Source: Thermomicrobiales bacterium (GTDB lineage Bacteria > Chloroflexota > Chloroflexia > Thermomicrobiales > CADCWN01). Taken from it: 56,630 nucleotides of DNA. Both the position numbers and the translations under genes were made by a program. The notes beneath the pieces were generated by a model that saw only the letters and a list, made by a program, of their open reading frames with translations, had not been told where the DNA came from and searched no databases. Position 1 is the stretch's first letter. The number at the start of each line of letters is the position of its first letter. Shown here piece after piece: positions 6,309 through 54,811 of this stretch. The DNA lies in assembly GCA_035708265.1 (NCBI GenBank), contig DASSSV010000347.1, forward strand, positions 1-56,630, in the 5' to 3' direction.

Positions 6309-8654
6309 GTGTATCGTCGACGCCCCACCCGGCCTTGCGCGCCACCCCCGGAGCGCGCCGACCGCGCCGGGGCCGGCGCGGCCACGTTGGATCACCACCT
6401 GCGGCGCAGTTCAGCCATCCTCTACGCGGTCGGCCTCGCCGTCGGGCTCTTCGTCAACAACACCCCCCTCGGCCGGGGCTTCAACCGCCTCGGCATCAAC
6501 CTCCTCGCCGTCTGCGCCCTGCTGTCGATCCTGGCCGTCTGGTACGTCCCCTGGCGCCGCTACCACCGCGACTGCTTCGCGCTCGTCACCGGCAGCGCCA
6601 TCGCCATCGTGGCCGTGCTCGTGCCCTGGAGCGGCGGCTGGCAGAGCCCCTTCACCGCCTATTACTTCTTCATCGTCGTCTTCGCCGCCCTCTACTATCG
6701 CCCGCCCCTCGCCCTGGCGCTCGGCCTGGCCGTCACCTTGGCCTGGCTGTCGCCGCTGCTCGGCGGGTATGCGCCGCCCGCGGGCCCCTACGCGCTGCCC
6801 CGGCTCCTGCTGATCGTCGGCGCGACCTCCCTGGCCATCGTCGTCGTCGCACAGGTGATGGCCGGGGAGATCCTGCGGCTCTACGGCGAGACGCTCGCGC
6901 GCCTCGAGGAGCGGGATCGGGTCAAGCGCGCGCTCGCCGAGAGCGAGCAGCGCTACCGCTCCCTGTTCGACCACAATCCCGACGCCGTCTTCTCCCTCGA
7001 CCCGGCCGGCCGCATCGTGAGCGCCAACGCCGCCATCGAGGCCCTCACCGGCTACTCCGTCGCCGAGGCCCTGGCGCTCGAGACGGCGCACCTCGTCGCG
7101 CCGGACGACCACGAGCGGATCCGGCGGCACTTCGCCGAGGCGCTCGCCGGCCGCGCCCAACACGTCGAGCTGGCGCTCCGCCACAAGCGCGGGCGGCCCG
7201 TCGACGCGCAGGTGACCCTGCTGCCGATCCGCGTCGACGGGCGGCTGGTCGGCGTCTTCGGCATCGCCAAGGACATCAGCGCCCGCCGCGCCTACGAGGA
7301 GCAGCTGCAGCACCAGGCGTTCCACGACCCGCTGACCGGGCTGCCCAACCGCGCCCTGTTCCTGGACCGCCTCGGGCACGCGCTCGACCACGCCCGGCGG
7401 CGGGGGGAGGGGGTCGCGGTCCTCTTCGTCGACCTCGACCGCTTCAAGGTCATCAACGACAGCCTCGGGCACGAGGCCGGGGACCTGCTGCTCATCGCGG
7501 TCGCCAACGCCCTCAAGGGCTGCCTCCGGCCGGAGGACACCGCCGCGCGGCTGGGCGGGGACGAGTTCACGGTCCTGCTGGAGCGGGTCGCCGACATCAC
7601 CGCGGCGGTGGCGGTCGCCGAGCGCATCCTGCGGGCCCTCCAGGCGCCGCTCGCGCTGAGCGGCTACGACCTCGTCGTCACGGGCAGCCTGGGGATCGCC
7701 CTCAGCACCCCCGAGCGGAATGACCCGGTCGAGCTGATGCGCCAGGCCGATGTGGCGCTCTATCGCGCCAAGGCGCAGGGGCGGGGCTGCTACCAGGTCT
7801 TCGACGCCACAATGAATGCCCGCGTGCTGGAGCGGCTGGAACTCGAGGCCGAGCTGCGGCGGGCGCTGGAGCGGGAGGAGTTCGTCGTCCACTACCAGCC
7901 GAAGGTCGCGCTGGCGACCGGCCGCCTGGAGGGGGTCGAGGCCCTGGTGCGCTGGCAGCACCCGGAGCGCGGCCTCCTCCCCCCGGCCGCGTTCATCGCG
8001 TTGGCAGAAGAGACCGGGCTGATCCGCCCGCTCGGGCGCTGGGTGCTCGTCGAAGCCTGCCGACAGGCGCGCGCCTGGCAGGCGCGGCACCCGGCCGGCC
8101 CGCCGCTGGTGATGGCGGTCAACCTGACCGCGCCGCAATTCCAGCAGCCGCACCTCGCGGCGGACATCGCGGCCATCCTGGCGGAGACGGGCCTGCCGCC
8201 GCACCTCTTGCAGTTGGAGATCACCGAGAGCGTGCTGATGGACGACGCGGCGGCCACGCTGGCGACGCTGGGGGCGCTCAAGCGCCTGGGGGTGCAACTC
8301 GCGATCGACGACTTCGGCACCGGCTACTCCAGCCTGGCCTACCTCAAGCGCTTCCCGGTCGACTGGCTCAAGGTCGACCGACGCTTCGTCGAGGGCCTGG
8401 GGACGGACGCCGAGGACACGGCGATCGTGCAGGCCGTGGTCAACCTGGCGGCGGCGCTCAAGCTGGCGGTGACCGCCGAGGGCGTGGAGACGGCCGACCA
8501 GGTGGCGCGCTTGCAGGCACTGGGCTGCGCCCTCGGGCAGGGCTTCTACTTCGCCCGGCCGCTCCCGGCCGCGGCGGTCGACGCGCTCCTGGCCGCCGGC
8601 CGCGACTGCTCGCCCCTGGCGAAGTACGAAGTACGAGTGGCGAGCGACGAGTGA
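6309..8654 (+). CDS. Membrane-anchored PAS-GGDEF-EAL protein (c-di-GMP cyclase/phosphodiesterase)
   Basis: Multi-TM N-terminus and a PAS-like region (SEQRYRSLFDHNPDAVFSLD). RLGGDEFTVLL gives the GGDEF motif; EALVRWQHP and QLEITES give the EAL motifs. The start is uncertain (GTG 6309 or downstream). The stop TGA 8652-8654 lies inside the heptad array. Confidence 0.85.
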   Translation: MYRRRPTRPCAPPPERADRAGAGAATLDHHLRRSSAILYAVGLAVGLFVNNTPLGRGFNRLGINLLAVCALLSILAVWYVPWRRYHRDCFALVTGSAIAIVAVLVPWSGGWQSPFTAYYFFIVVFAALYYRPPLALALGLAVTLAWLSPLLGGYAPPAGPYALPRLLLIVGATSLAIVVVAQVMAGEILRLYGETLARLEERDRVKRALAESEQRYRSLFDHNPDAVFSLDPAGRIVSANAAIEALTGYSVAEALALETAHLVAPDDHERIRRHFAEALAGRAQHVELALRHKRGRPVDAQVTLLPIRVDGRLVGVFGIAKDISARRAYEEQLQHQAFHDPLTGLPNRALFLDRLGHALDHARRRGEGVAVLFVDLDRFKVINDSLGHEAGDLLLIAVANALKGCLRPEDTAARLGGDEFTVLLERVADITAAVAVAERILRALQAPLALSGYDLVVTGSLGIALSTPERNDPVELMRQADVALYRAKAQGRGCYQVFDATMNARVLERLELEAELRRALEREEFVVHYQPKVALATGRLEGVEALVRWQHPERGLLPPAAFIALAEETGLIRPLGRWVLVEACRQARAWQARHPAGPPLVMAVNLTAPQFQQPHLAADIAAILAETGLPPHLLQLEITESVLMDDAAATLATLGALKRLGVQLAIDDFGTGYSSLAYLKRFPVDWLKVDRRFVEGLGTDAEDTAIVQAVVNLAAALKLAVTAEGVETADQVARLQALGCALGQGFYFARPLPAAAVDALLAAGRDCSPLAKYEVRVASDE

Positions 8655-8742
8655 CGAGCGATGAGTGGGGGGCGGGGGCTTCGCCGGGGCGACTCGTCGC
8701 TCATCGCCCATCGCTCGACACGCATTCGTCATTCGTACTTCG
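8621..8742. repeat. Heptad hairpin element: GAAGTAC/GAGCGAC/GAGTGAC/GAGCGAT arm and complementary CTCGTCG/CTCATCG/TTCGTCA/TTCGTAC arm
   Basis: Seven tandem 7-nt units (8621-8669), a G-rich loop, then a pyrimidine-rich arm (8691-8742) that is partly reverse-complementary. Confidence 0.85.
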
Positions 8743-8960: not shown

Positions 8961-9962
8961 ATGGCACAGGCGACGCTCGCGCCGGCGACCCCGTGGAGCG
9001 GACTGCGCAGCCAGTTCCTCGAATCCCGCGACCCCGCGGACCAGGTCCACATCTTCGACCTGAGCGCCCGCGCCGCGCAGGTGCTGCACCGCTGGGCCGC
9101 GCGCTACCCCCTGATCCGCCGCGTGCGCGTCTGGCCGCTGGCGCTCTCGGTCGCCGCGGCCGCCCCCTACAGCAGCGTCGAGGCGCTGATCGCCACGGCC
9201 CGGCTGAGCCTGTGGGTCTTCACGCTCGACGACCTCTTCGACGAGGAGCGCGTGCCGCGCGCCGAGTTGATGCGCCGCGCTGAACGCTACCGCGCCATCG
9301 CCCGCGGGCGCCCGACGCCGGCGACCCGCGACAGCCTGGCCACGGCACTCGCCGAGGTGCGCGACGACCTGGCCCGCTACCCGCTCTTCGCCGCCCTCGG
9401 CGAGGAGTGGGCCGAGGCGCTCTGCGGCACGATCGACGGCATGACGCACGAGTACGAGTGGCGGCTCTCCTACCGGCAGGACCACGGCGCGCCGCTGCCG
9501 ACCTACGAGGAATATCTGGTCCCCGGCCGGTTCAGCATCGGCGGCCCGCCGCACGTCTGGGCCGCCCTGATCGCGACCGACGACCCCTCGACGCCGCGCC
9601 ACCTCGACCACCTGCGGCCGATGGAGCGGATCGCCTCGACCTGCATCCGCCTGGCCAACGACCTCCAGAGCCACGCCAAAGAGTTGGGCGAGAGCAAGAT
9701 CAACGCGCTCGTGCTGCTCACGCGGGCCTATGGCCGGCTCGGGCTACCCGCCGCCGAGGCGGCGCAGCGGGCCGAACGGCGCGTCCGGGTGGACATCGCC
9801 AGCGGGCTGACCGCGCTGGCGGAGCTCCAGGTGGACGCGCGGACGCAGACGCGGCGGCCGGAGGCGGCCATCGCCGACATCGCCCGCTTCGTCTGCGATT
9901 TCTACCGCACGCACGACTACCACACCTTCGTGATGGGCCGCACGTCGGAGACGGGGGCATAG
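8961..9962 (+). CDS. Class I (ionisation-dependent) terpene synthase
   Basis: ATG 8961 (MAQATLAPAT...). It carries the DDLFD (DDxxD) motif and NDLQSHAKE (NSE/DTE metal-binding motif). The upstream part of the track ORF (8661-8960) crosses the repeat element and is likely non-coding. Confidence 0.75.
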   Translation: MAQATLAPATPWSGLRSQFLESRDPADQVHIFDLSARAAQVLHRWAARYPLIRRVRVWPLALSVAAAAPYSSVEALIATARLSLWVFTLDDLFDEERVPRAELMRRAERYRAIARGRPTPATRDSLATALAEVRDDLARYPLFAALGEEWAEALCGTIDGMTHEYEWRLSYRQDHGAPLPTYEEYLVPGRFSIGGPPHVWAALIATDDPSTPRHLDHLRPMERIASTCIRLANDLQSHAKELGESKINALVLLTRAYGRLGLPAAEAAQRAERRVRVDIASGLTALAELQVDARTQTRRPEAAIADIARFVCDFYRTHDYHTFVMGRTSETGA

Positions 9963-9966
9963 CGCG

Positions 9967-11526
9967 ATGGTGGCGATCGCGACGGCGCCGGCCTCGAGCG
10001 TCCTCGGCGCGCCCGGCGCGCGCCCCGGCATCGCCGGGACGGCCTACGACACCGCCTGGCTGGCGGGCGTGCCCGACCCGGCCGACCCCGGCGCGCCGCG
10101 CTTCCCGGCCGCGCTGGCCTGGCTGGTCGAGCACCAGCGGCCGGACGGGAGTTGGGGCGGCGCGGTGCGCTACGAGCACGACCGCGTCCTCGGCACGCTG
10201 GCCGCGCTCGGATCGCTGGCGGCCTTCGGCCGGCGCGCGGAGGACCGCGAGGCGGTGGCGCGCGGCACGCGCTACCTCTGGCAGCGCGGGCACCTGCTGG
10301 CCGGCGAGCCGGTCGAGCCGGTCGGCTGCGAGCTCCTGCTCCCCGCGCTGGTCGAGCGGGCGCGACACGCGGGGGTGCCGGTGCCGCCGCACCTGGACAT
10401 CTACGGCCGCGAGCGGGCGGAGAAGTTGCGGCTGCTCCCGCCCGACGCGCTCTACTCGCCGCGCGTGACGGTCGTCCACTCGCTCGAATTCCTCGGCGAC
10501 GCGGGGGACCTCGCGGGGCTGCGCGCGGCGCGGGGCGCCAACGGCGCGCTCGGCAATTCGCCCGCCGCGACGGCCTACTACCTCGCCCGCACCGACGACC
10601 CCCGCGCGCTGGCCTACCTGGAGGACTGCCTGGCGCGCAACGGCGGCGCGACCGCGCCGGTGCTGCACCCTTGCGAGACCTTCGAGCTCCTCTGGGCGGC
10701 GTATCACCTCTTCCTGGCCGGGGCGCCGGCCGCGCGACTGCTCGGCCGCGCCGACCGCGCGACGCTCGCCGCCGCGCTGCGGGCCGACGGCGTCAGCCTG
10801 TCGCCGACCTTCCCCATCGCCGACGCCGACGACACGGCGGTGGCGCTGCTCCTCCTGCACGAGTTGGGCGAGCCGGTCGCCCCCGGCGTGCTGGCGCGCT
10901 TCGCGCTGGGGCCGGGCGGCTGCTTCGCCAGTTTCCCGCACGAGCGGCACGCCTCGGTCGGGGTCAACCTGCACGCCCTGCACGCGATCGCGCGGGTGCC
11001 GGGCTACCGCGACCGCGAGCGCACAATGGCACGCCTGCTCGACTACCTCGCCGGCGAACAGCGCGGCGGCCTCTACTGGCTCGACAAGTGGCACATCTCG
11101 CCCTTCTACGCCACCGCGCACGCCCTCTGCGTCCTGGCCGACCTGCCGCCCGACCTGGCCGCGCGGGCCGCGCCGCTGGCCGACCGCGCGCGCGAGTGGG
11201 TGCGCCAGACGCAGAACGCCGACGGCTCCTGGGGCTTCTACGGCGAGCCGACCGCCGAGGAGACCGCCTACGGCGTGCTGGCGCTGGCGCGCGGGGCGGC
11301 GGACAGGCCGTCGGCACGCGACCGGCGGCGCTGCGCGGCCGGGCTGCGCTACCTGCGCACGCTCGACGCCGCCACCGCCGGCACGGAGGACTACCCACCG
11401 CTCTGGATCGACAAGTGCCTCTACACGCCGACGCTGGTCGTGCGGGCGACGATCGCGGCGGCGCTGGCCGTCGCCCGGGGCGGGCGCACGACGCTCGATG
11501 GGGAAGCGAAGGGAGCGGGCCGATGA
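9967..11526 (+). CDS. Class II (protonation-dependent) diterpene cyclase, copalyl/kolavenyl/terpentedienyl-diphosphate-synthase-like
   Basis: The DxDD motif appears as IADADDTA. QW-like repeats are QRPDGSWGG and QNADGSWGFYG, and NSPAATAYYL is also present. It starts 4 nt after the class I synthase stop. Confidence 0.75.
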   Translation: MVAIATAPASSVLGAPGARPGIAGTAYDTAWLAGVPDPADPGAPRFPAALAWLVEHQRPDGSWGGAVRYEHDRVLGTLAALGSLAAFGRRAEDREAVARGTRYLWQRGHLLAGEPVEPVGCELLLPALVERARHAGVPVPPHLDIYGRERAEKLRLLPPDALYSPRVTVVHSLEFLGDAGDLAGLRAARGANGALGNSPAATAYYLARTDDPRALAYLEDCLARNGGATAPVLHPCETFELLWAAYHLFLAGAPAARLLGRADRATLAAALRADGVSLSPTFPIADADDTAVALLLLHELGEPVAPGVLARFALGPGGCFASFPHERHASVGVNLHALHAIARVPGYRDRERTMARLLDYLAGEQRGGLYWLDKWHISPFYATAHALCVLADLPPDLAARAAPLADRAREWVRQTQNADGSWGFYGEPTAEETAYGVLALARGAADRPSARDRRRCAAGLRYLRTLDAATAGTEDYPPLWIDKCLYTPTLVVRATIAAALAVARGGRTTLDGEAKGAGR

Positions 11527-11951
11527 TTGAACGGACGGACGAGCCGGCGGGGCGGGATCGCATCCTCCTGGTGGACGACGAACCCTACATCCTGAGGTCG
11601 CTGAGTTACCTCCTCACCCGCGAGGGCTACGCGGTGGCGACCGCCAGCAACGGCGAGGAGGGCCTGGCGCGGCTGCGCGCGGTGCGGCCGCGCCTGGTCT
11701 TCCTCGACATCATGATGCCGCGGATGAATGGCTACGAGGTCTGCGAGCAGATCAAGCAGGACCCGGCGACGGCCGATACCTACGTCATCATGCTCAGCGC
11801 GAAGGGCCAGCAGATCGACCGCGAGCGCGGGCTCCTGGGCGGCGCCGACGAGTACATGACCAAGCCGTTCAGCCCGCGCGAGGTCGCCCAGCGCGTCCGG
11901 GAGATTTTCGCGCGCGACGGCGCGGCGGCCGCGCCGGTGGCGGGCCCGTGA
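11523..11951 (+). CDS. Stand-alone response regulator receiver domain (CheY-like)
   Basis: ILLVDDEPYI...FLDIMMPRMNGYEV...MLSAKG...YMTKPF. Its ATG overlaps the stop of the cyclase gene (ATGA). Confidence 0.85.
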   Translation: MIERTDEPAGRDRILLVDDEPYILRSLSYLLTREGYAVATASNGEEGLARLRAVRPRLVFLDIMMPRMNGYEVCEQIKQDPATADTYVIMLSAKGQQIDRERGLLGGADEYMTKPFSPREVAQRVREIFARDGAAAAPVAGP

Positions 11952-13801
11952 TGTCGACCTATCAGCGCTTGCTGGCCGCCGGCATCCGGTTGTGGCAGGG
12001 GCCGCCGGCCTTCCCGCGGTCGTTGCAGCTCGAGTGGCGCTTCGTGATCGTCCGCTGGCTGGGCATCGGCATCATGACGCCGGGCCTCCTGCTGGCGCAC
12101 CTCGGCTCGGGGCGGACGGTGGCGGGGTACGCGGTCCTCCTGCTGGCCGCGGTCTACAACGCCGTCGTACAGGTCGTGCTGTTGCGGCGCCCGGCGATCT
12201 TCGCCAGCGGCTACATCACCGTGATCGGCGACGCCCTGCTCAACATCGCCATGATCAACATCGGCGGGGGCTTCGACTCGCCGTTCTACTATCTCCTCTT
12301 CACCGCGACGATCTCGGCCGCGATGCGCTACGGCTACGGCCCCTCGCTGGCGACGGTGACGATCTTCGTCGCCCTCGACGGCGTGGAGGGGCGGCTGGGC
12401 CGGCACGCGCTCGACGGCATCTACGTCTTCCGCTCCGGCTTCCTCTTCATCACGGTGGTCCTGGCCGGCTACCTCAGCGAGCAGGCGCGGCGCGCCGAGG
12501 CGGCGCTGCAGGAGCGCCTGCGCCAGGCCGACCTCCTCAATCGCTCCACCGCGCTGCTCGGCGCGAGCCTTGAGTTCGAGCGGGTGCTGCACGCCGTCGC
12601 CGCGGCCGCCTGCCGCCTCTTCGACGGCGCGAGCGTCGCCCTGCGCCCGGCCGCCAACCTGGCCGAGCGCGCAGGCATCGAGGCGGCCGCCATCGAGCAC
12701 CCCTGCCCCGGCACCGGCGAGGCGGCGCGCGCGGGGCTGGTCGCCCTCTGCGACCGCTACGCAGGCGCAGCCTATCGACCGCGCGAGGCGCGCGACCGGC
12801 TCGGCGCACGCGAGCGGCTGCCCTCGGGCGAGCAGGCGCTGGTCTTCAACCTGGCCTTGCCGACCCGCCCGACCGCGCTGGCGACGCTCGCGGTGGGCCT
12901 GCCGGCCGGGCGACCGGCGCCCGCGCTCGACCCCGACATCCTCGACTCCTTCGTCGAGCGGACGACGCTGGCGCTCGAGAACGCCGGACTCTACCGCACG
13001 CTCGCCAGCCGCACCGACGACCTCCAGCGCGCCTACAGCGACCTGGCGATCGCGCACCAGGAGCTCCTCAGCGTCGACGAGATGAAGACCAATTTCCTGG
13101 CGAACGTGTCGCACGAGCTGCGCACGCCGCTCAGTTCGATCCGCTCCTTCTCCGAACTCCTCCTCTCCTACGACGACGACGTCAGCGTCCAGCAGGAGTT
13201 CCTGGGCATCATCAACCAGGAGAGCGAACGCCTGACCCGGCTGGTCAACGACGTGCTCGACATCACCAAGATCGAGGCGGGCCAGTTGCATTGGGACATG
13301 CAGGCGCTCGACGTGGCGACCCTCCTGCACGATAGCGCCCGCACCTACGCCCCCCTGATCCAGGAGCAGGGGCTGACCTTCCGGCGGGAGATCGCCGACG
13401 ACCTCCCAGCGATCTGCGCCGACCGCGACCGCCTGCAGCAGGTGATCGCCAACCTCCTGGTCAACGCGATGAAGTTCACCCCGGCCGGGACGGTCCGGCT
13501 CGCCGCGCGGGCCGGCGGCGGGGAGGTCCGCATCGCCGTGTCCGACACCGGCATCGGGATCGCGCCGCAGGACCGCGAGCGCATCTTCGAGAAGTTCCAG
13601 CAGGTCGGCGAGACGCTCACCGGCAAGCCCAAGGGGACGGGCCTCGGCCTGGCGATCTGTCGGGACATCGTCGCCCATCACGGGGGCCGCCTCTGGGTGG
13701 AGTCGCGCCTCGGCGCCGGCAGCACGTTCATCGTCGCGCTGCCGGCCCTCCCCGTCGCGATCCCGACAGCGGAGGCGGCCCTGATCAGTGCCGAGCGATG
13801 A
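11948..13801 (+). CDS. Membrane sensor histidine kinase (multi-TM, GAF-like, HisKA, HATPase_c)
   Basis: The H-box is FLANVSHELRTPLSSI and the G-boxes are DTGIGI and GTGLGLAI. The start GTGATG overlaps the receiver stop. The stop TGA 13799-13801 is inside the heptad array. Confidence 0.85.
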   Translation: MMSTYQRLLAAGIRLWQGPPAFPRSLQLEWRFVIVRWLGIGIMTPGLLLAHLGSGRTVAGYAVLLLAAVYNAVVQVVLLRRPAIFASGYITVIGDALLNIAMINIGGGFDSPFYYLLFTATISAAMRYGYGPSLATVTIFVALDGVEGRLGRHALDGIYVFRSGFLFITVVLAGYLSEQARRAEAALQERLRQADLLNRSTALLGASLEFERVLHAVAAAACRLFDGASVALRPAANLAERAGIEAAAIEHPCPGTGEAARAGLVALCDRYAGAAYRPREARDRLGARERLPSGEQALVFNLALPTRPTALATLAVGLPAGRPAPALDPDILDSFVERTTLALENAGLYRTLASRTDDLQRAYSDLAIAHQELLSVDEMKTNFLANVSHELRTPLSSIRSFSELLLSYDDDVSVQQEFLGIINQESERLTRLVNDVLDITKIEAGQLHWDMQALDVATLLHDSARTYAPLIQEQGLTFRREIADDLPAICADRDRLQQVIANLLVNAMKFTPAGTVRLAARAGGGEVRIAVSDTGIGIAPQDRERIFEKFQQVGETLTGKPKGTGLGLAICRDIVAHHGGRLWVESRLGAGSTFIVALPALPVAIPTAEAALISAER

Positions 13802-13906
13802 GCGACGAGGGGAGTGACGAGTGACGAGTGACGAGTGACGAGGGGACTGGGGGAACGCTCGTCCGTCCTCCGTCCTCCGTCTCGCTCATCGCTCATCGCT
13901 CATCAC
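13793..13906. repeat. Heptad hairpin element (GAGCGAT, GAGCGAC, GTGACGA x4 / CCTCCGT x2, CTCATCG x3)
   Basis: Tandem 7-nt units are read directly. GAGCGATGAGCGACGAG pairs with CTCGCTCATCGCTCATCGCTC. Confidence 0.85.
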
Positions 13907-13926
13907 CGGAGTGGGAGGGAGCGGAG

Positions 13927-15846
13927 ATGGCCGCGGTGATGGTGGCGAACGGCCTGGCGGCGGACGTGGAGCCGAACGAGTGCGGCACGTGGGCCTGCCC
14001 GCTGACGGCGGCGCAGGTGCGCGAGATCCTGGCGCCGGGGCTGGCCGGGCCGGTCGTCGCGCTCGGACTGGCGTCGCCCGACGGGCCGGTGTACGCGCGG
14101 GCCGCGCGGGCGCATGGCGAGCGCGGCCCGGCCGTCGAGGTGGTCGCGCCGGTGGTGGTGCAAGGCACCGCGGTCGCGGCCGTGCGGGTGACGGGGGCAG
14201 GCGCGGAACGCGAGCGCGTCGAGGCGGTGGCGCGCCTGACCGCGGCGTACGTCTCGGCCGCCTGGCAGGCCGCCCGCGAGATCGACAGCCTGGCCGGCGA
14301 GGTCGTCCACGCCTACGAAGAACTCCACCTCCTCTACGAGCTCGGCGCTGCCCTGACGGGCCAGCTCACCGTCGCGCGGGCGGCGGACCTGATCCTGGCG
14401 AAGATCCTGAACGTGCTGCACGCGACCGACGCCGAGCTGGTCGTGGACGACCCGGCCGGGCCGGTGCGCGTCCGGCGCGGCGCGGGGCCGGCCGGCGCCG
14501 GCGCGCAGCGCCTGGAGGCGCCGCTGCAGAACAACGGTCAGCGCCTCGGCGCGATCGTCCTGGCGCGCCCGCGCGACGCCGCGCCCTTCTCCTCGGCCGA
14601 CGGCAAACTCCTCGACGCCGTCGGCGCCTTCGCCGGCAGCGCGATCCGCAACGCGCAGCTCTACCCGACGCTGCGCCGGCAGGCCGACACCGACGCACTG
14701 ACGGGCCTGGCGAACCACCGCGCGATCCAGGAGCGGCTCGACGAGGAGCTGGCGCACGCCGCCGCGGCCGGGCAACCGCTCGCCGTCCTGATGATCGACG
14801 TGGACGACTTCAAACTCTTCAACGACACCTACGGCCACTTGGTCGGCGACCAGATCCTGCGCCTCGCCAGCCGCACGCTCAAGGAGGCGTGCCGCGACAC
14901 CGACGTCATCGGCCGGTACGGCGGCGACGAGTTCATCGTGCTCCTGCCGGGGGCCGATCGGGCGGGAGCGAGCGACGCCGCGCACCGCATCCTGGCGCTG
15001 ATGGCCGCGCGCAGCGTCCGCGCGGCCGGGCAGGACCCGTTGCCCATCGCGCTCTCCATCGGGGTCGCGCTCTACCCCGACGACGCGACGCTCAAGCACG
15101 ACATTTTGAGCCACGCCGACGCCGCGCTCTACGAGACGAAGCGCAGCGGCGGCAACGGCGTGCGCCACCACCAGGGGATCGACGAGGTCGCGTACGCGCC
15201 GGTCGCCGAGGGCGCCTGCACGACCTTCAGCGCGCTCCAGGGCCTCGTCAACGCGGTGGACGCCAAGGATCGCTACACGCGCGACCACTCCGATGCGGTG
15301 ACCGAGGGGGCGCTGCTGCTGGCCGAGCGGCTGGGGCTGTCGCCCGAGGCGTGCGGGGCGCTCCGCATCGCCGGCCTCCTGCACGACGTCGGGAAGATCG
15401 GCATCCCCGACCGCATCCTGCGCAAGCCGGGGCGCCTCACCGACGAAGAATACCGGATCATGCAGCAGCACGTCTCGCTGTCCGAACTCATCATCAAGGA
15501 AGTGCCCTCGCTGGTGGACGTGCTGGGCGCGGTCGCCAGCCACCACGAGCGCTACGACGGCCGCGGCTACCCGCGCGGGCTGCGCGGCGAGGCGATCCCC
15601 CTCCTGGGCCGGATCATGGCGCTGGCCGACGCCTGCGCGGCGATGCTGCTCAATCGCCCCTACCGGCGCGGGCTGGGGTGGCCGGAGGTCGCCGCCGAGT
15701 TGCGGCGGGGGGCCGGCACGCAGTTCGACCCGGCGCTGGTCGAGCCGTTCATCGAGGCGATCGAACACTCAACCTACCTGACCGCCATCGCCCCGCAGCC
15801 GCCGGCCGGGCCGGCGCACAATCGGCAACTGGATAGGGAGCGCTAG
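13927..15846 (+). CDS. GAF-GGDEF-HD-GYP protein (c-di-GMP turnover)
   Basis: ATG 13927 follows GGGAGGGAGCGGAG. RYGGDEFIVLL gives the GGDEF motif. LLHDVGKIGIP and HHERYDGRGYPRGL give the HD-GYP motifs. Confidence 0.85.
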   Translation: MAAVMVANGLAADVEPNECGTWACPLTAAQVREILAPGLAGPVVALGLASPDGPVYARAARAHGERGPAVEVVAPVVVQGTAVAAVRVTGAGAERERVEAVARLTAAYVSAAWQAAREIDSLAGEVVHAYEELHLLYELGAALTGQLTVARAADLILAKILNVLHATDAELVVDDPAGPVRVRRGAGPAGAGAQRLEAPLQNNGQRLGAIVLARPRDAAPFSSADGKLLDAVGAFAGSAIRNAQLYPTLRRQADTDALTGLANHRAIQERLDEELAHAAAAGQPLAVLMIDVDDFKLFNDTYGHLVGDQILRLASRTLKEACRDTDVIGRYGGDEFIVLLPGADRAGASDAAHRILALMAARSVRAAGQDPLPIALSIGVALYPDDATLKHDILSHADAALYETKRSGGNGVRHHQGIDEVAYAPVAEGACTTFSALQGLVNAVDAKDRYTRDHSDAVTEGALLLAERLGLSPEACGALRIAGLLHDVGKIGIPDRILRKPGRLTDEEYRIMQQHVSLSELIIKEVPSLVDVLGAVASHHERYDGRGYPRGLRGEAIPLLGRIMALADACAAMLLNRPYRRGLGWPEVAAELRRGAGTQFDPALVEPFIEAIEHSTYLTAIAPQPPAGPAHNRQLDRER

Positions 15847-15858
15847 AGGAGACACGAT

Positions 15859-16440
15859 ATGCCCGCGATAACCCTGCTCGTAGAGTGCCCGGCCGCCACC
15901 GAAGAGTCCCCCGCCGCGCCCGTCATCTCACCCGCCAGCCCACCTGTGGAGGTGGCCCGCGCGACCGGCGACTTCGCCGTCCACGGCGAGACCTTCTCGC
16001 TCGTCACGGGCGGCGACACGCCCGCGTACCACGACCTGACCGAACTCGTGCGGGCGGTCGTCGCGCGCGCCGGGGTGGCGGCAGGGACGCTCCTGGTCAG
16101 CACGCGACACACCACCTGCGCGGTCGTGGTGCAGGAGCACGAGCCGCTGCTGTTGCGCGACATGGCCGACCGCCTGCGGCGCTACGCCGGCGCGCACGAG
16201 GACTACCGGCACAACGACTTCGCGGTGCGCACGGTCAACATGTGCGACGGCGAGTGCGCCAACGGCCACGCCCACTGTCAGCACCTCCTGCTCGGCGCCG
16301 CTGTAACCCTCCCGGTGCTCGACGGCCGGCCGGTGCTCGGCCTCTGGCAGCGCGTCTTCCTGGTCGAGCTGGACCGCCCCCGCCTGCGACACTACTCGGT
16401 GCAGGTGATGGGCGTGCGGGACGGAGACGATAGACGATAG
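15859..16440 (+). CDS. YjbQ/UPF0047 family protein (secondary thiamine-phosphate synthase-like) with an N-terminal extension
   Basis: STRHTTCAVVVQEHEP...DYRHND...GHAHCQHLLLG...LGLWQRVFLVELD matches the YjbQ family. The stop lies inside the CGATAGA heptads. Confidence 0.7.
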   Translation: MPAITLLVECPAATEESPAAPVISPASPPVEVARATGDFAVHGETFSLVTGGDTPAYHDLTELVRAVVARAGVAAGTLLVSTRHTTCAVVVQEHEPLLLRDMADRLRRYAGAHEDYRHNDFAVRTVNMCDGECANGHAHCQHLLLGAAVTLPVLDGRPVLGLWQRVFLVELDRPRLRHYSVQVMGVRDGDDRR

Positions 16441-33043: not shown

Positions 33044-33193
33044 CGAATGACGAAGGACGAAGGACGAAGGACGAAGGACGAGTTGGTGCGACGGGCGGCT
33101 ACTCCCGCCACCGCCTCTCGCCCCTCGTCACTCGTCACTCGTCACTCGTCACTCGCCATTCGTACTTCGTACTTCGTACTTCGTACTTCGAGG
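33042..33193. repeat. Heptad hairpin element: GACGAAG-type x6, then CTCGTCA x4 and TTCGTAC x4
   Basis: 16 tandem 7-nt units in two arms (33042-33083 and 33124-33193) fill the nuoL-nuoM gap. The last degenerate unit, TTCGAGG, provides the only Shine-Dalgarno-like GAGG before the nuoM GTG. Confidence 0.9.
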
Positions 33194-44248: not shown

Positions 44249-44271
44249 GCCCCACCTCCTACTTCAGTGCC

Positions 44272-44400
44272 GAGCGATGAGCGATGAGCGATGAGTAGCA
44301 GTCAGCCATCAGCAGTCAGCCATCAGCGTTCAATGGTGCGGCTGATGACTGATCGCTGACGGCTGATAGCCCACTCGTCGCTCATCGCTCATCGCTCGCT
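44272..44400. repeat. Nested heptad/14-mer hairpin element
   Basis: The outer arms are GAGCGAT x3 and CTCATCGCTCATCGCTCG. The inner arms are AGTCAGCCATCAGC x2 and the complementary GCTGATGACTGATCGCTGACGGCTGAT. It lies between the XPB stop and the HD-gene start. Confidence 0.85.
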
Positions 44401-54664: not shown

Positions 54665-54811
54665 CGAAGTACGAATGACGAAGTACGAAGTACGAATAGG
54701 CGCGAGGGGGCGTCCTGCCTGTTCGTCAGCCCCTCGGCGGTGAACGATCGCCCCGCTCATCACTCGTCATTCGTCATTCGTCATTCGTACTTCGCACCTC
54801 GTACTTCGTCG
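54663..54811. repeat. Heptad hairpin element (GACGAAG/TACGAAT x5, then CTCGTCA/TTCGTCA/TTCGTAC x8)
   Basis: Tandem 7-nt units in two partly complementary arms (54663-54697 and 54756-54811). The upstream TGA stop overlaps the first unit. Confidence 0.85.

Follow-up and report, generated by a model that had tools for sequence, protein, structure and literature searches.

Does the close packing of two terpene synthase genes with a two-component system on a contig of a Thermomicrobiales bacterium (Chloroflexota) reflect a functional connection, and if so, is the terpenoid produced in response to a signal or does it constitute the signal itself? The preliminary description of the window, i.e., the whole analysed stretch of 56,630 nucleotides, had recognised a core of four genes encoding a class I terpene synthase (TS1), a class II cyclase (TS2), a receiver and a histidine kinase, and the corresponding ORFs and gene junctions were recovered as described. 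The TAG stop codon of TS1 is followed by a 4-nt gap (9963-9966) and the ATG of TS2 at 9967, while the TS2 stop codon overlaps the receiver start within the ATGA at 11523-11526. The receiver stop codon TGA (11949-11951) likewise overlaps the kinase start; however, the latter had been placed at GTG 11948, and ATG 11951 is the likelier start because the NCBI protein comprises 616 aa and the orthologue calls in L045 and L048 feature the same 1-nt overlap. No terminator-like site was found inside 8961-13801. The end of the unit had to be revised, since the conserved block is larger than four genes and reaches 16440. Hence, the conserved module (8961-16440) consists of TS1, TS2, the receiver, a histidine kinase with six transmembrane helices and a GAF domain (6TM-GAF), a GAF-GGDEF-HD-GYP enzyme and a YjbQ protein.

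Phmmer searches against the PDB, Pfam and motifs place TS2 (9967-11526, forward strand, 519 aa) in the Rv3377c family of class II diterpene cyclases. The best solved relative of TS2 is Rv3377c/6VPT (4.5e-53, residues 17-502), the halimadienyl-PP (tuberculosinyl diphosphate) synthase of M. tuberculosis (PMC9814783, PMC9585517), which takes the place of the Herpetosiphon and actinomycete enzymes named earlier as comparators; other class II diterpene cyclases such as Tpn2/7XKX (5e-41) and PtmT2/5BP8 (1e-36) as well as plant CPS (1e-29 to 1e-32) were also matched. This full-length homology, together with an intact DADD motif (10822-10833, residues 286-289, with D288 as the middle Asp), bears out the class II assignment. 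Moreover, QRPDGSWG lies at 10135-10158 and QNADGSWGF at 11212-11238; alignment A1 shows no variation at H336, D373-K374-W375 and Y486 (20 homologues for the His and the DKW), and FPIPDADDTAV, or a variant of one or two residues, is kept in all TS2 orthologues of the clade comprising the window (window clade). D295, H341 and Y479 of Rv3377c, i.e., the middle-Asp acid, the activating His and the catalytic-base Tyr, correspond to D288, H336 and Y486 of TS2, and the (D/E)KW motif is shared, the roles of the DxDD acid, the activating His and the (D/E)KW motif in class II cyclases being those given in PMC9585517. In contrast, Rv3377c features DCDT instead of DADD and Y328 instead of F323, and a Y328F mutant of Rv3377c forms mixed labdadienyl and halimadienyl products (PMC9585517). 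Cyclisation of GGPP to a bicyclic diphosphate by TS2 is inferred from these sequence features. TS2 also matches the Pfam domain SQHop_cyclase_C (3.2e-17), but the profile searches did not group it with squalene-hopene cyclases (SHC), an outcome that would have refuted the initial assignment: alignment to SHC covered only ~95 residues (about 320-425, 1e-8), the scores for TIGR01787 (squalene/oxidosqualene cyclases, 56.9 bits) and TIGR01507 (hopene cyclases, 50.6 bits) remained below the cut-offs of 322.7 and 431.1 bits, and 519 aa compare with 631 aa for SHC.

The class I assignment of TS1 (8961-9962, forward strand, 333 aa) proved equally sound, as DDLFD (9228-9242) and NDLQSHAKE (9657-9683) are present and Terpene_syn_C_2 (PF19086) is matched with 3.7e-22 and 79.5 bits, above the gathering score of 23.7 bits. 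In support of the start at 8961, TS1 aligns with L002 over its entire length (q1-333). The full-length orthologues scanned have retained both metal motifs, with DEVLE in L023, while the TS1 fragments in L019 and L036 are devoid of the second motif. Among solved structures, Stt4548 and Sat1646 are the closest to TS1 (2e-15 and 6e-15), both being class I diterpene synthases acting on copalyl-PP (PMC9814573). The matches to these two and to the labdane-related 6OH6 are weak, with E-values of only 1e-15 to 4e-3, and the inference that TS1 accepts the TS2 product as a synthase of the labdane-related subtype draws mainly on its adjacency to TS2. A partner of the Rv3378c type was also considered: unlike in the Rv3377c-Rv3378c locus, where Rv3378c adopts a cis-prenyltransferase fold, the cyclase partner in the window has the canonical alpha fold of class I synthases, and Rv3378c homologues of a more distant clade show no similarity to TS1 (BLASTP E > 0.1).

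Both components of the signalling pair were confirmed by matches to Response_reg, HisKA and HATPase_c and by the presence of the two-component motifs. The stand-alone receiver (11523-11951, forward strand, 142 aa; Response_reg 8.7e-30), a single-domain response regulator, features the acidic-pocket motifs DDE, D62 and K114, and Pfam detected no output domain. The sensor histidine kinase (11951-13801, forward strand, 616 aa), delineated by Pfam, an AlphaFold2 model and orthology, starts with an N-terminal helix and six membrane helices connected by short loops only (11951-12535), followed by a GAF-like domain (about 12536-12950) and the HisKA/HATPase_c core with a SHELRTPL H-box (13109-13132) as well as N, G1 and G2 boxes. 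Pfam recognised HisKA and HATPase_c only; the GAF domain claimed earlier is nevertheless supported by the AlphaFold2 model (pLDDT 84), for which Foldseek returned the GAF domains of PDE5, PDE2 and PDE6 as best matches. No Pfam model matches the 6TM domain, and only 163 relatives (E<=1e-3) were retrieved among 1.84 billion representatives. R35, W36, Y69, N70, D94 and GGGFDSPFYY are conserved as intramembrane or interfacial polar residues, which together with the short loops fits an intramembrane sensor. Phosphotransfer from the kinase to the receiver is inferred from the overlapping genes and their conserved pairing.

C-di-GMP enzymes had been reported on both sides of the core, and both are indeed present, but only the downstream one is conserved with the block. 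This GAF-GGDEF-HD-GYP enzyme (forward strand, up to 15846) most likely starts at 13927 and not at 13828, and is matched by GGDEF (5.5e-46), HD_5 (3.1e-36) and, weakly, GAF. Its motifs are intact, encompassing GGDEF at 14920-14934, an RDTD I-site five residues before it (14893-14904), the HD motif at 15382 (HDVGK) and GYP at 15565-15573. The N-terminal domain of this enzyme recurs beside the module, fused to GGDEF-HD-GYP, PAS-GGDEF-EAL or a kinase core. The YjbQ/UPF0047 gene (15859-16440, forward strand; UPF0047 7.2e-29) is frequently the last gene of the module and lies 3' of it in L011, L012, L015, L045, L046, L050, L057 and L085. Upstream, the multi-TM PAS-GGDEF-EAL protein (6309-8654, forward strand; Pfam) is a neighbour outside the conserved module, and its TM region exhibits only weak similarity of the GGxxSPF type to the kinase (pairwise E 0.009).

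Whether the adjacency of synthases and signalling genes is fortuitous was addressed by synteny. In a cyclase-first sample of genome contigs, the same 6TM sensor directly follows TS2 in 19 of the 21 window-clade loci with enough flank, with the receiver in between in 16 of these 19, and sensor-first look-ups revealed an adjoining TS1-TS2 pair in 3/3 cases. These loci span MAGs of Chloroflexia, Caldilineaceae, Dehalococcoidales-like lineages and Anaerolineae, at cyclase identities of 46-68% and GC contents of 0.40-0.71; the kinases are orthologous over their full length (45-63% identity), and the receivers are 64-88% identical. Independent gene calls of the relatives yielded TS2-receiver gaps of 2-72 nt, a receiver-kinase spacing between a 4-nt overlap and a 14-nt gap, and a distance from the kinase to the c-di-GMP gene between a 4-nt overlap and a 102-nt gap. 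Each relative examined has different genes outside the block, including those upstream of TS1. The linkage of the synthases to the two-component system is thus conserved in related Chloroflexota genomes and not fortuitous. Two window-clade loci lack the 6TM sensor: in L026 a kinase is missing from the vicinity, and L019 features a different hybrid kinase. Furthermore, the 6TM-GAF portion is fused to PAS-GGDEF-EAL in place of the kinase core in L009, and a direct junction of the 6TM domain with HisKA is found in L006 and L008. The sensor is accordingly the constant part, while the output varies; likewise, the c-di-GMP protein retains its N-terminal domain with an output that alternates between HD-GYP, EAL and a kinase core. 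No cultured carrier was present among 44 genome loci, all carriers found being MAGs or metagenome contigs.

A comparable linkage exists in a more distant Chloroflexota clade, where a Rv3378c homologue (7e-88) precedes the class II cyclase and a TM-PAS kinase directly follows this pair in 9/11 loci, with the linkage recovered in 3/3 sensor-first look-ups. The membrane domain of this kinase is not homologous to that of the window kinase (hhalign probability 0.9%), and the link between cyclase and kinase therefore looks convergent. Kinase and receiver were seen beside the second-clade pair, and its gene calls contained no GGDEF, EAL or HD-GYP gene. Rv3378c homologues occurred only in this more distant clade of Chloroflexota and archaea.

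Among known systems, bacterial class II/class I pairs for labdane-related diterpenes (for example, those with PtmT2 or Tpn2, and Sat1646/Stt4548 with their CPP synthases) resemble the window pair in that the DxDD motif and the DDxxD/NSE motifs are carried by separate genes lying side by side. In contrast to these labdane-related pairs, no GGPP synthase, P450 or other tailoring gene was found near the window pair, which instead shares its operon with genes of a two-component system and a c-di-GMP enzyme, a linkage conserved across the phylum. Literature searches returned no report of such an arrangement. With respect to signalling, rpfF-rpfC-rpfG (DSF), cqsA-cqsS (CAI-1) and lqsA-lqsR-lqsS (LAI-1) are cassettes of a synthase and its cognate membrane sensor, whose signals are fatty-acid or hydroxyketone molecules and whose output in the rpf case is a HD-GYP c-di-GMP phosphodiesterase. 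The module resembles these cassettes in outline: the synthase of a hydrophobic molecule adjoins a receiver and a multi-TM sensor kinase whose periplasmic domain is small or missing, and the HD-GYP phosphodiesterase of rpf has its counterpart in the conserved c-di-GMP neighbour, which carries GGDEF-HD-GYP or GGDEF-EAL. Conservation of a synthase beside a multi-TM kinase and a receiver holds for both clades by the above counts (19/21 and 3/3; 9/11 and 3/3). Nevertheless, the synthases of the window are terpene synthases, its 6TM domain is not represented in Pfam and has merely some 160 relatives among 1.84 billion representatives, its receiver and HD-GYP domain reside on separate proteins, and the analogy is not supported by data on a ligand, density dependence or a phosphorelay.

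Conservation of the linkage across the phylum suggests that a self-made terpenoid is used as a signal or membrane cue. In the proposed sequence of events, TS2 would protonate GGPP via D288 of DADD to yield a bicyclic diphosphate of the halimadienyl or labdadienyl type, which TS1 would ionise at the metal sites of DDLFD and NDLQSHAKE to give a diterpene hydrocarbon or alcohol. This lipophilic product may partition into the membrane and act as the cue of the kinase, whose six membrane helices and cytoplasmic GAF domain could sense it directly or via an effect on the bilayer. The kinase would subsequently phosphorylate the single-domain receiver, whose target might be the neighbouring GAF-GGDEF-(HD-GYP or EAL) enzyme, with a change in c-di-GMP as the result. 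Substrate, product, perception of the product by the kinase and action of the receiver on the c-di-GMP enzyme are all inferred, and since genomic context is the sole support, with no product, ligand or phosphotransfer data, belief and doubt are evenly balanced for the claim that the diterpenoid is a cue for the membrane kinase, signalling via the receiver to c-di-GMP turnover. The more far-reaching proposal, that the Chloroflexota diterpenoid is a self-produced, membrane-diffusible signal read by a dedicated and hitherto undescribed 6TM-GAF kinase acting on c-di-GMP, is put forward only tentatively and remains doubtful. If true, it would be the first description in bacteria of a cell signalling circuit that relies on a terpenoid and a cognate receptor, one which apparently arose twice on two different scaffolds of cyclase partner and kinase.

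The preliminary description had left undecided whether the terpenoid is signal-gated or a signal, and both possibilities are still live, the second being favoured without being demonstrated. The first would imply reverse control: an external stimulus or a general one of the membrane (temperature, fluidity or envelope stress, for example) would be perceived by the 6TM-GAF kinase, which together with the receiver and c-di-GMP would gate the synthesis of an end-product diterpenoid serving as membrane-ordering lipid, protectant or allelochemical. A sensor-first metagenome scan bears on this question, since only 14 of the 40 sensor loci with 1.5 kb or more of upstream sequence contained TS2. The 26 remaining loci, as far as their architecture was resolved in the domain tree, mainly represent paralogues from two clades, one of GAF-less 6TM-HisKA proteins (about 476 aa) and one of 6TM-GGDEF-EAL proteins, while L055 and L058 are devoid of TS2 though inside the TS-linked sensor clade. 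The 6TM domain is therefore not exclusive to terpene operons and could sense a general membrane property, and paralogous sensors without terpene genes are to be expected of a general membrane sensor. In addition, a loop-less multi-TM design is also that of membrane-state sensors such as DesK, and co-transcription of the enzymes with their regulators, as indicated by gene packing, fits autoregulated production. However, the receiver has no DNA-binding domain and the block lacks a conserved transcription factor, so that gating would need a post-translational route or c-di-GMP effectors elsewhere; moreover, the convergence of two unrelated sensor families on the same cyclase family is accounted for more readily by detection of the cyclase product. 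Reverse control thus remains possible, if rather unlikely.

The link to signalling would stand even if the product were not a labdane-related C20 diterpene. FPP, GFPP or another prenyl donor might be used, or YjbQ might aid formation of a prenylated conjugate, as the product is not readable from sequence and both proteins share little identity with characterised enzymes (class I ~1e-15; class II ~1e-53 to a DxDT enzyme). YjbQ accompanies TS1-TS2 even in the kinase-less L026 and lies directly 3' of TS2 there as well as in L009; its staying with the synthases suggests an extra chemical step. A non-C20 product is nonetheless improbable, given that, for both proteins, the nearest homologues of solved structure are diterpene enzymes with GGPP or copalyl-type diphosphates as substrates, and that the acid, the activating His and the catalytic-base Tyr of Rv3377c are all conserved in TS2. 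Least credible, to the point of being nearly dismissed, is an adjacency without function, in which inherited synteny or a selfish co-transferred block persists in the absence of any interaction between terpenoid and signalling. Shared ancestry does contribute to conservation, as most carriers belong to one phylum, and the sensor is missing from L026 and L019; yet the block alone is conserved between flanks that differ on both sides in every relative, it is retained at GC contents between 40% and 71% and at cyclase identities as low as 46-50%, stop/start codon overlaps are maintained, and an unrelated kinase family exhibits the same linkage in the second clade.

Further features concern transcription and substrate supply. 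Both spacers bracketing the four-gene core contain hairpins of heptamer repeats, namely palindromes without strand assignment at 8635-8720, 5' of TS1 (-58.5 kcal/mol, z -4.7), and at 13793-13905, between the kinase and GGDEF-HD-GYP genes (-64 kcal/mol, z -2.35); the strong hairpin at the latter position could uncouple transcription of the two genes in this genome. In line with the preliminary description, no GGPP (prenyl-diphosphate) synthase, P450 or methyltransferase was detected among the 36 window proteins scanned. The Pfam scan, which left a few ORFs without any match, omitted 20.3-36.3 kb, taken for an NADH dehydrogenase operon from translations alone. Substrate supply is hence undocumented in the window, with no GGPP synthase among the proteins scanned, and this was counted against the best explanation. 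In some relatives, accessory isoprenoid genes reside in the block, i.e., a DXP synthase gene in L048 and a Nudix gene in L046.

The class I terpene synthase gene TS1 (8961-9962) and the class II diterpene cyclase gene TS2 (9967-11526) are separated by a gap of 4 nt and followed by a stand-alone receiver of 142 amino acids (11523-11951), which overlaps TS2 by an ATGA, and by a sensor histidine kinase gene, which overlaps the receiver stop with its start and ends at 13801. This four-gene core is succeeded by a GAF-like-GGDEF-HD-GYP gene (13927-15846, 13927 being the best start) and a YjbQ/UPF0047 gene (15859-16440), which closes the block in the window. The open reading frames and junctions of the preliminary description proved to be real, its coordinates, 4-nt gap and overlaps being confirmed, and the packing of synthase and signalling genes is operon-like. 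Intrinsic terminators were not found within the block, and a sigma-70 promoter scan returned zero sites; the GC content of the window is about 72%. An RNA-family scan placed only four tRNAs of the window above threshold. Beyond these, no known riboswitch or other known RNA was detected, the leader of 306 nt included, where miRNA models matched hairpins spuriously and nothing else was hit. The 36 window proteins scanned include no prenyl-diphosphate synthase, P450 or methyltransferase; this set leaves out 20.3-36.3 kb, which was taken for an NADH dehydrogenase operon on translations alone.

TS1 matches the class I family Terpene_syn_C_2 of Pfam with 79.5 bits (cut-off 23.7) and features the motifs DDLFD (9228-9242) and NDLQSHAKE (9657-9683). 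Its closest solved relatives are Stt4548 and Sat1646, two diterpene synthases of class I, which produce isopimaradiene from copalyl diphosphate (PMC9814573). TS2, which carries DADD (10822-10833) and the QW-like repeats quoted in the preliminary description (10135-10158 and 11212-11238), matches class II diterpene cyclases from bacteria along its entire length. The top PDB match is 6VPT (4.5e-53), which is not the Herpetosiphon kolavenyl-PP synthase, an assignment that is wrong, but Rv3377c of Mycobacterium tuberculosis, the halimadienyl (tuberculosinyl) diphosphate synthase (PMC9814783, PMC9585517). A squalene-hopene cyclase identity, by which the earlier claim would have fallen, was rejected: no more than about 95 residues match such an enzyme, and the scores of the curated cyclase models remain far under their cut-offs. 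Of the residues with assigned roles in Rv3377c (PMC9585517), the general acid D295 corresponds to D288 of TS2, invariant in 20 homologues, and the activating histidine H341 and the catalytic base Y479 to H336 and Y486, which are likewise invariant, as is D373-K374-W375 at the position of the conserved (D/E)KW motif. The helper residue Y328 is replaced by F323 in TS2. Since the Y328F mutant of Rv3377c yields a mix of labdadienyl and halimadienyl products (PMC9585517), the product class is plausible yet not specifiable, and the active-site residues of TS2 permit no product call beyond halimadienyl- or labdadienyl-type. Window-clade orthologues of TS2, defined below, keep FPIPDADDTAV or a variant differing by one or two residues, and full-length TS1 orthologues keep the DDLFD-type and NDLQSxxKE-type motifs. 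TS1 and TS2 are enzymes under selection and not relics. With their catalytic sites intact, the two represent a minimal diterpene pathway of one class II and one class I enzyme, the product of which is inferred.

Regarding the signalling genes, the receiver lacks an output domain according to Pfam, and the kinase comprises HisKA and HATPase_c domains preceded by 370 residues to which no Pfam family could be matched, even at E = 1. An AlphaFold2 model of the kinase based on 37 homologues (pLDDT 84) displays an N-terminal helix, six membrane helices whose connecting loops are very short, then a long connector helix and finally a GAF-like domain, the top Foldseek matches of which are the GAF domains of PDE5, PDE2 and PDE6. 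The six-helix part, here termed the 6TM domain (11951-12535), constitutes an unannotated sensor domain without a Pfam match. The product of 13927-15846 combines divergent GAF-like N-terminal domains with a GGDEF domain, whose I-site is intact, and an HD-GYP domain; homology between its GAF-like N-terminus and the GAF domain of the kinase was not detectable. The gene upstream of TS1 encodes a multi-TM PAS-GGDEF-EAL protein, the membrane region of which (6309-6960) has GG(W/F)xSPF...AA(L/M)(Y/R)Y in common with the 6TM region of the kinase (11951-12520) and may, by this motif, be a distant paralogue of the sensor domain. The likeness is weak and confined to the motif level (pairwise E 0.009), and it is not relied on.

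A cyclase-first scan, in which each GTDB species was represented by one genome and the patterns were derived from an alignment of TS2 homologues, retrieved 44 loci, which were annotated with the window's own proteins; because short conserved peptide patterns were used, the counts cover close to moderately distant relatives only. The window clade, characterized by a canonical TS1 and a TS2 of 46-68% identity, comprises 21 loci with enough downstream sequence, in 19 of which a 6TM-domain protein directly follows TS2. Hence, the linkage of terpene synthases to two-component genes, as proposed from the window alone, is kept in relatives. In 16 of these 19 loci a receiver is located between TS2 and the 6TM protein, and the kinases share 45-63% identity with the window kinase over their full length, which identifies them as orthologues. 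The two exceptions are locus L019, where a different hybrid kinase takes the place of the 6TM protein, and L026, which consists of TS1-TS2-YjbQ only. A c-di-GMP enzyme adjoins the block in 13 window-clade loci. In twelve of these, the enzyme shares its N-terminal domain with the product of 13927-15846 or, in L036, is left as a degraded HD-GYP copy of that gene; it is encoded either downstream of the kinase, as PAS-GGDEF-EAL or GGDEF-HD-GYP, or ahead of TS1, as GGDEF-HD-GYP. In the thirteenth, L009, it is the 6TM-GAF sensor itself that carries PAS-GGDEF-EAL, in a fusion that replaces the kinase core. L006 and L008 encode a 6TM domain joined directly to HisKA, with no receiver gene in between. 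In this clade, the sensor is thus constant and the output variable. Four further contigs with independent gene calls and Pfam labels, three of them picked via the kinase and not via the cyclase, exhibit the same order and tight spacing amid entirely different flanking genes.

The YjbQ/UPF0047 gene is frequently the last gene of the block. It is kept with the synthases in the absence of the kinase in L026 (8791-9288) and directly follows the cyclase in L009 (9659-10192), and its product might take part in the terpene pathway itself. Weak thiamine-phosphate-synthase activity, a diphosphate-displacement reaction, has been reported for YjbQ proteins. In some relatives, the 3' end of the block has an inserted gene for DXP synthase, the first enzyme of the MEP pathway (L048, 12377-14383), or for a Nudix hydrolase (L046, 12454-12891), for both of which isoprenoid accessory functions are plausible.

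The 6TM domain is rare: an exhaustive phmmer search of 1.84 billion representative sequences retrieved 163 with E <= 1e-3, of which 77 reach E <= 1e-10. A metagenome scan with an alignment of this domain only gave 69 loci, 40 of which provide at least 1.5 kb of upstream sequence; receiver and TS2 are present in 14 of these 40 and TS2 is absent from 26, where the resolved architectures are mainly 6TM-HisKA without GAF (about 476 aa) or 6TM-GGDEF-EAL. Exclusiveness of the domain to terpene operons was therefore rejected. A neighbour-joining tree built on the domain places 6TM-HisKA and 6TM-GGDEF-EAL proteins in clades of their own, separate from those of the terpene-linked sensors; L055 and L058, which lack synthases, are exceptions that fall inside the terpene-linked clade. 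Taken together, scan and tree indicate that the orthologue group of the window kinase is tightly tied to synthases, but the domain itself is not. Among the remaining relatives (L064, L071, L072, L088, L092 and others) are orphan 6TM-HisKA kinases, neighboured by an ArsR-AHSA1 regulator and an aldolase-SDR fusion, as well as 6TM-GGDEF-EAL proteins.

More distant cyclases (32-44% identity) of Anaerolineae, other Chloroflexota and two archaeal MAGs constitute a second clade, in which the cyclase (2.2e-62 against 6VPT) is preceded by a protein of about 305 amino acids. This protein has no Pfam match but is a clear homologue of Rv3378c, as judged against PDB 3WQK by profile (7e-88) and single sequence (8.6e-64). 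Such adjacent Rv3378c/Rv3377c-like pairs occur in L024, L025, L027, L028 (700-1653 and 3710-5185), L030, L034 (9023-9940), L035, L037-L041, the archaeal L042 and L044, and L121-L123, in what we take to be the transcriptional order of M. tuberculosis. There, the Rv3377c-Rv3378c pair underlies the virulence lipid 1-TbAd, so that adjacent homologues in environmental Chloroflexota and archaea bear on the origin of that locus. Efforts to find orthologues outside mycobacteria had failed according to a PLoS Biology paper of 2024 (PMC11476799). A TM-PAS-HisKA-HATPase kinase immediately follows the cyclase in 9 of 11 second-clade Chloroflexota loci with enough flank, some of these kinases being hybrids with two receiver domains. 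Moreover, a lookup starting from the second-clade membrane domain found the Rv3378c-like gene, cyclase, sensor, kinase core and receiver in a row on all three long contigs. The membrane domains of these kinases and of the window-clade kinases show no homology to each other (no hmmsearch match; hhalign probability 0.9%), and hence two unrelated membrane kinases have each been wedded to an operon with an Rv3377c-family cyclase.

The linkage to intramembrane sensor kinases is accordingly both conserved and convergent, and in the window clade a single-domain receiver and a c-di-GMP enzyme are linked as well. A fortuitous adjacency of synthases and signalling genes is very unlikely. All carriers are MAGs or metagenome contigs, and the module is found in soil and sediment samples, such as those of L046, L050, L057 and L085. 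The window-clade carriers range from 40 to 71% GC and are labelled Chloroflexia, Caldilineaceae, Anaerolineae and Dehalococcoidales; selection therefore maintains the adjacency. Concerning the purpose of the linkage, the lipophilic product might be the cue read by the kinase, directly or through the bilayer, upon which the receiver would modulate c-di-GMP turnover; product, ligand and phosphotransfer are inferred, and we give this reading about an even chance. The main rival, a kinase that responds to another cue and gates the production of the terpenoid, remains possible but appears less probable, since no DNA-binding regulator exists anywhere in the block and two sensor families converge on one enzyme family. 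On the other hand, the non-exclusive 6TM domain is the main caveat for a dedicated terpenoid receptor.

The design of the module parallels rpfF-rpfC-rpfG, cqsA-cqsS and lqsA-lqsR-lqsS, where the gene for the enzyme that makes a hydrophobic signal lies next to that for a multi-TM kinase, the output of rpf being an HD-GYP enzyme. No description of a linkage of terpene synthase, two-component and c-di-GMP genes, in Chloroflexota or elsewhere, was found in the literature searched. We are not aware of any receptor described in bacteria for a terpenoid of their own making, and most bacterial terpenoids have no known biological role. In the phylum-wide operon, a minimal diterpene pathway is tied to a membrane kinase, a receiver and a c-di-GMP enzyme of its own, which offers a concrete candidate ligand-receptor pair, amenable to testing by heterologous expression of the two enzymes and reconstitution of the kinase. 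The analysis in addition defines the six-helix membrane sensor as a small domain without annotation.

Intergenic elements of tandem heptamers (e.g. GAGTGAC, CGATGAG, CGAAGTA) occur at 8635-8720, 13793-13905, 33044-33190, 44249-44398 and 54756-54786, the first two bracketing the four-gene core. The heptamer pattern has 16 matches against 0.3 expected. Long hairpins are formed at four of the five sites (up to -101.5 kcal/mol, z -10.6), and the fold around 54756-54786 is no better than shuffles (z 0.44). The elements look like a REP-like family with heptanucleotide periodicity, to which no function is assigned. Finally, on the minus strand at 903-2885, a siroheme-decarboxylase-like (NirDL/AhbAB-type) gene adjoins a chlorite-dismutase-family (HemQ-like) gene, which suggests that the pair is part of an alternative or coproporphyrin-dependent haem pathway.
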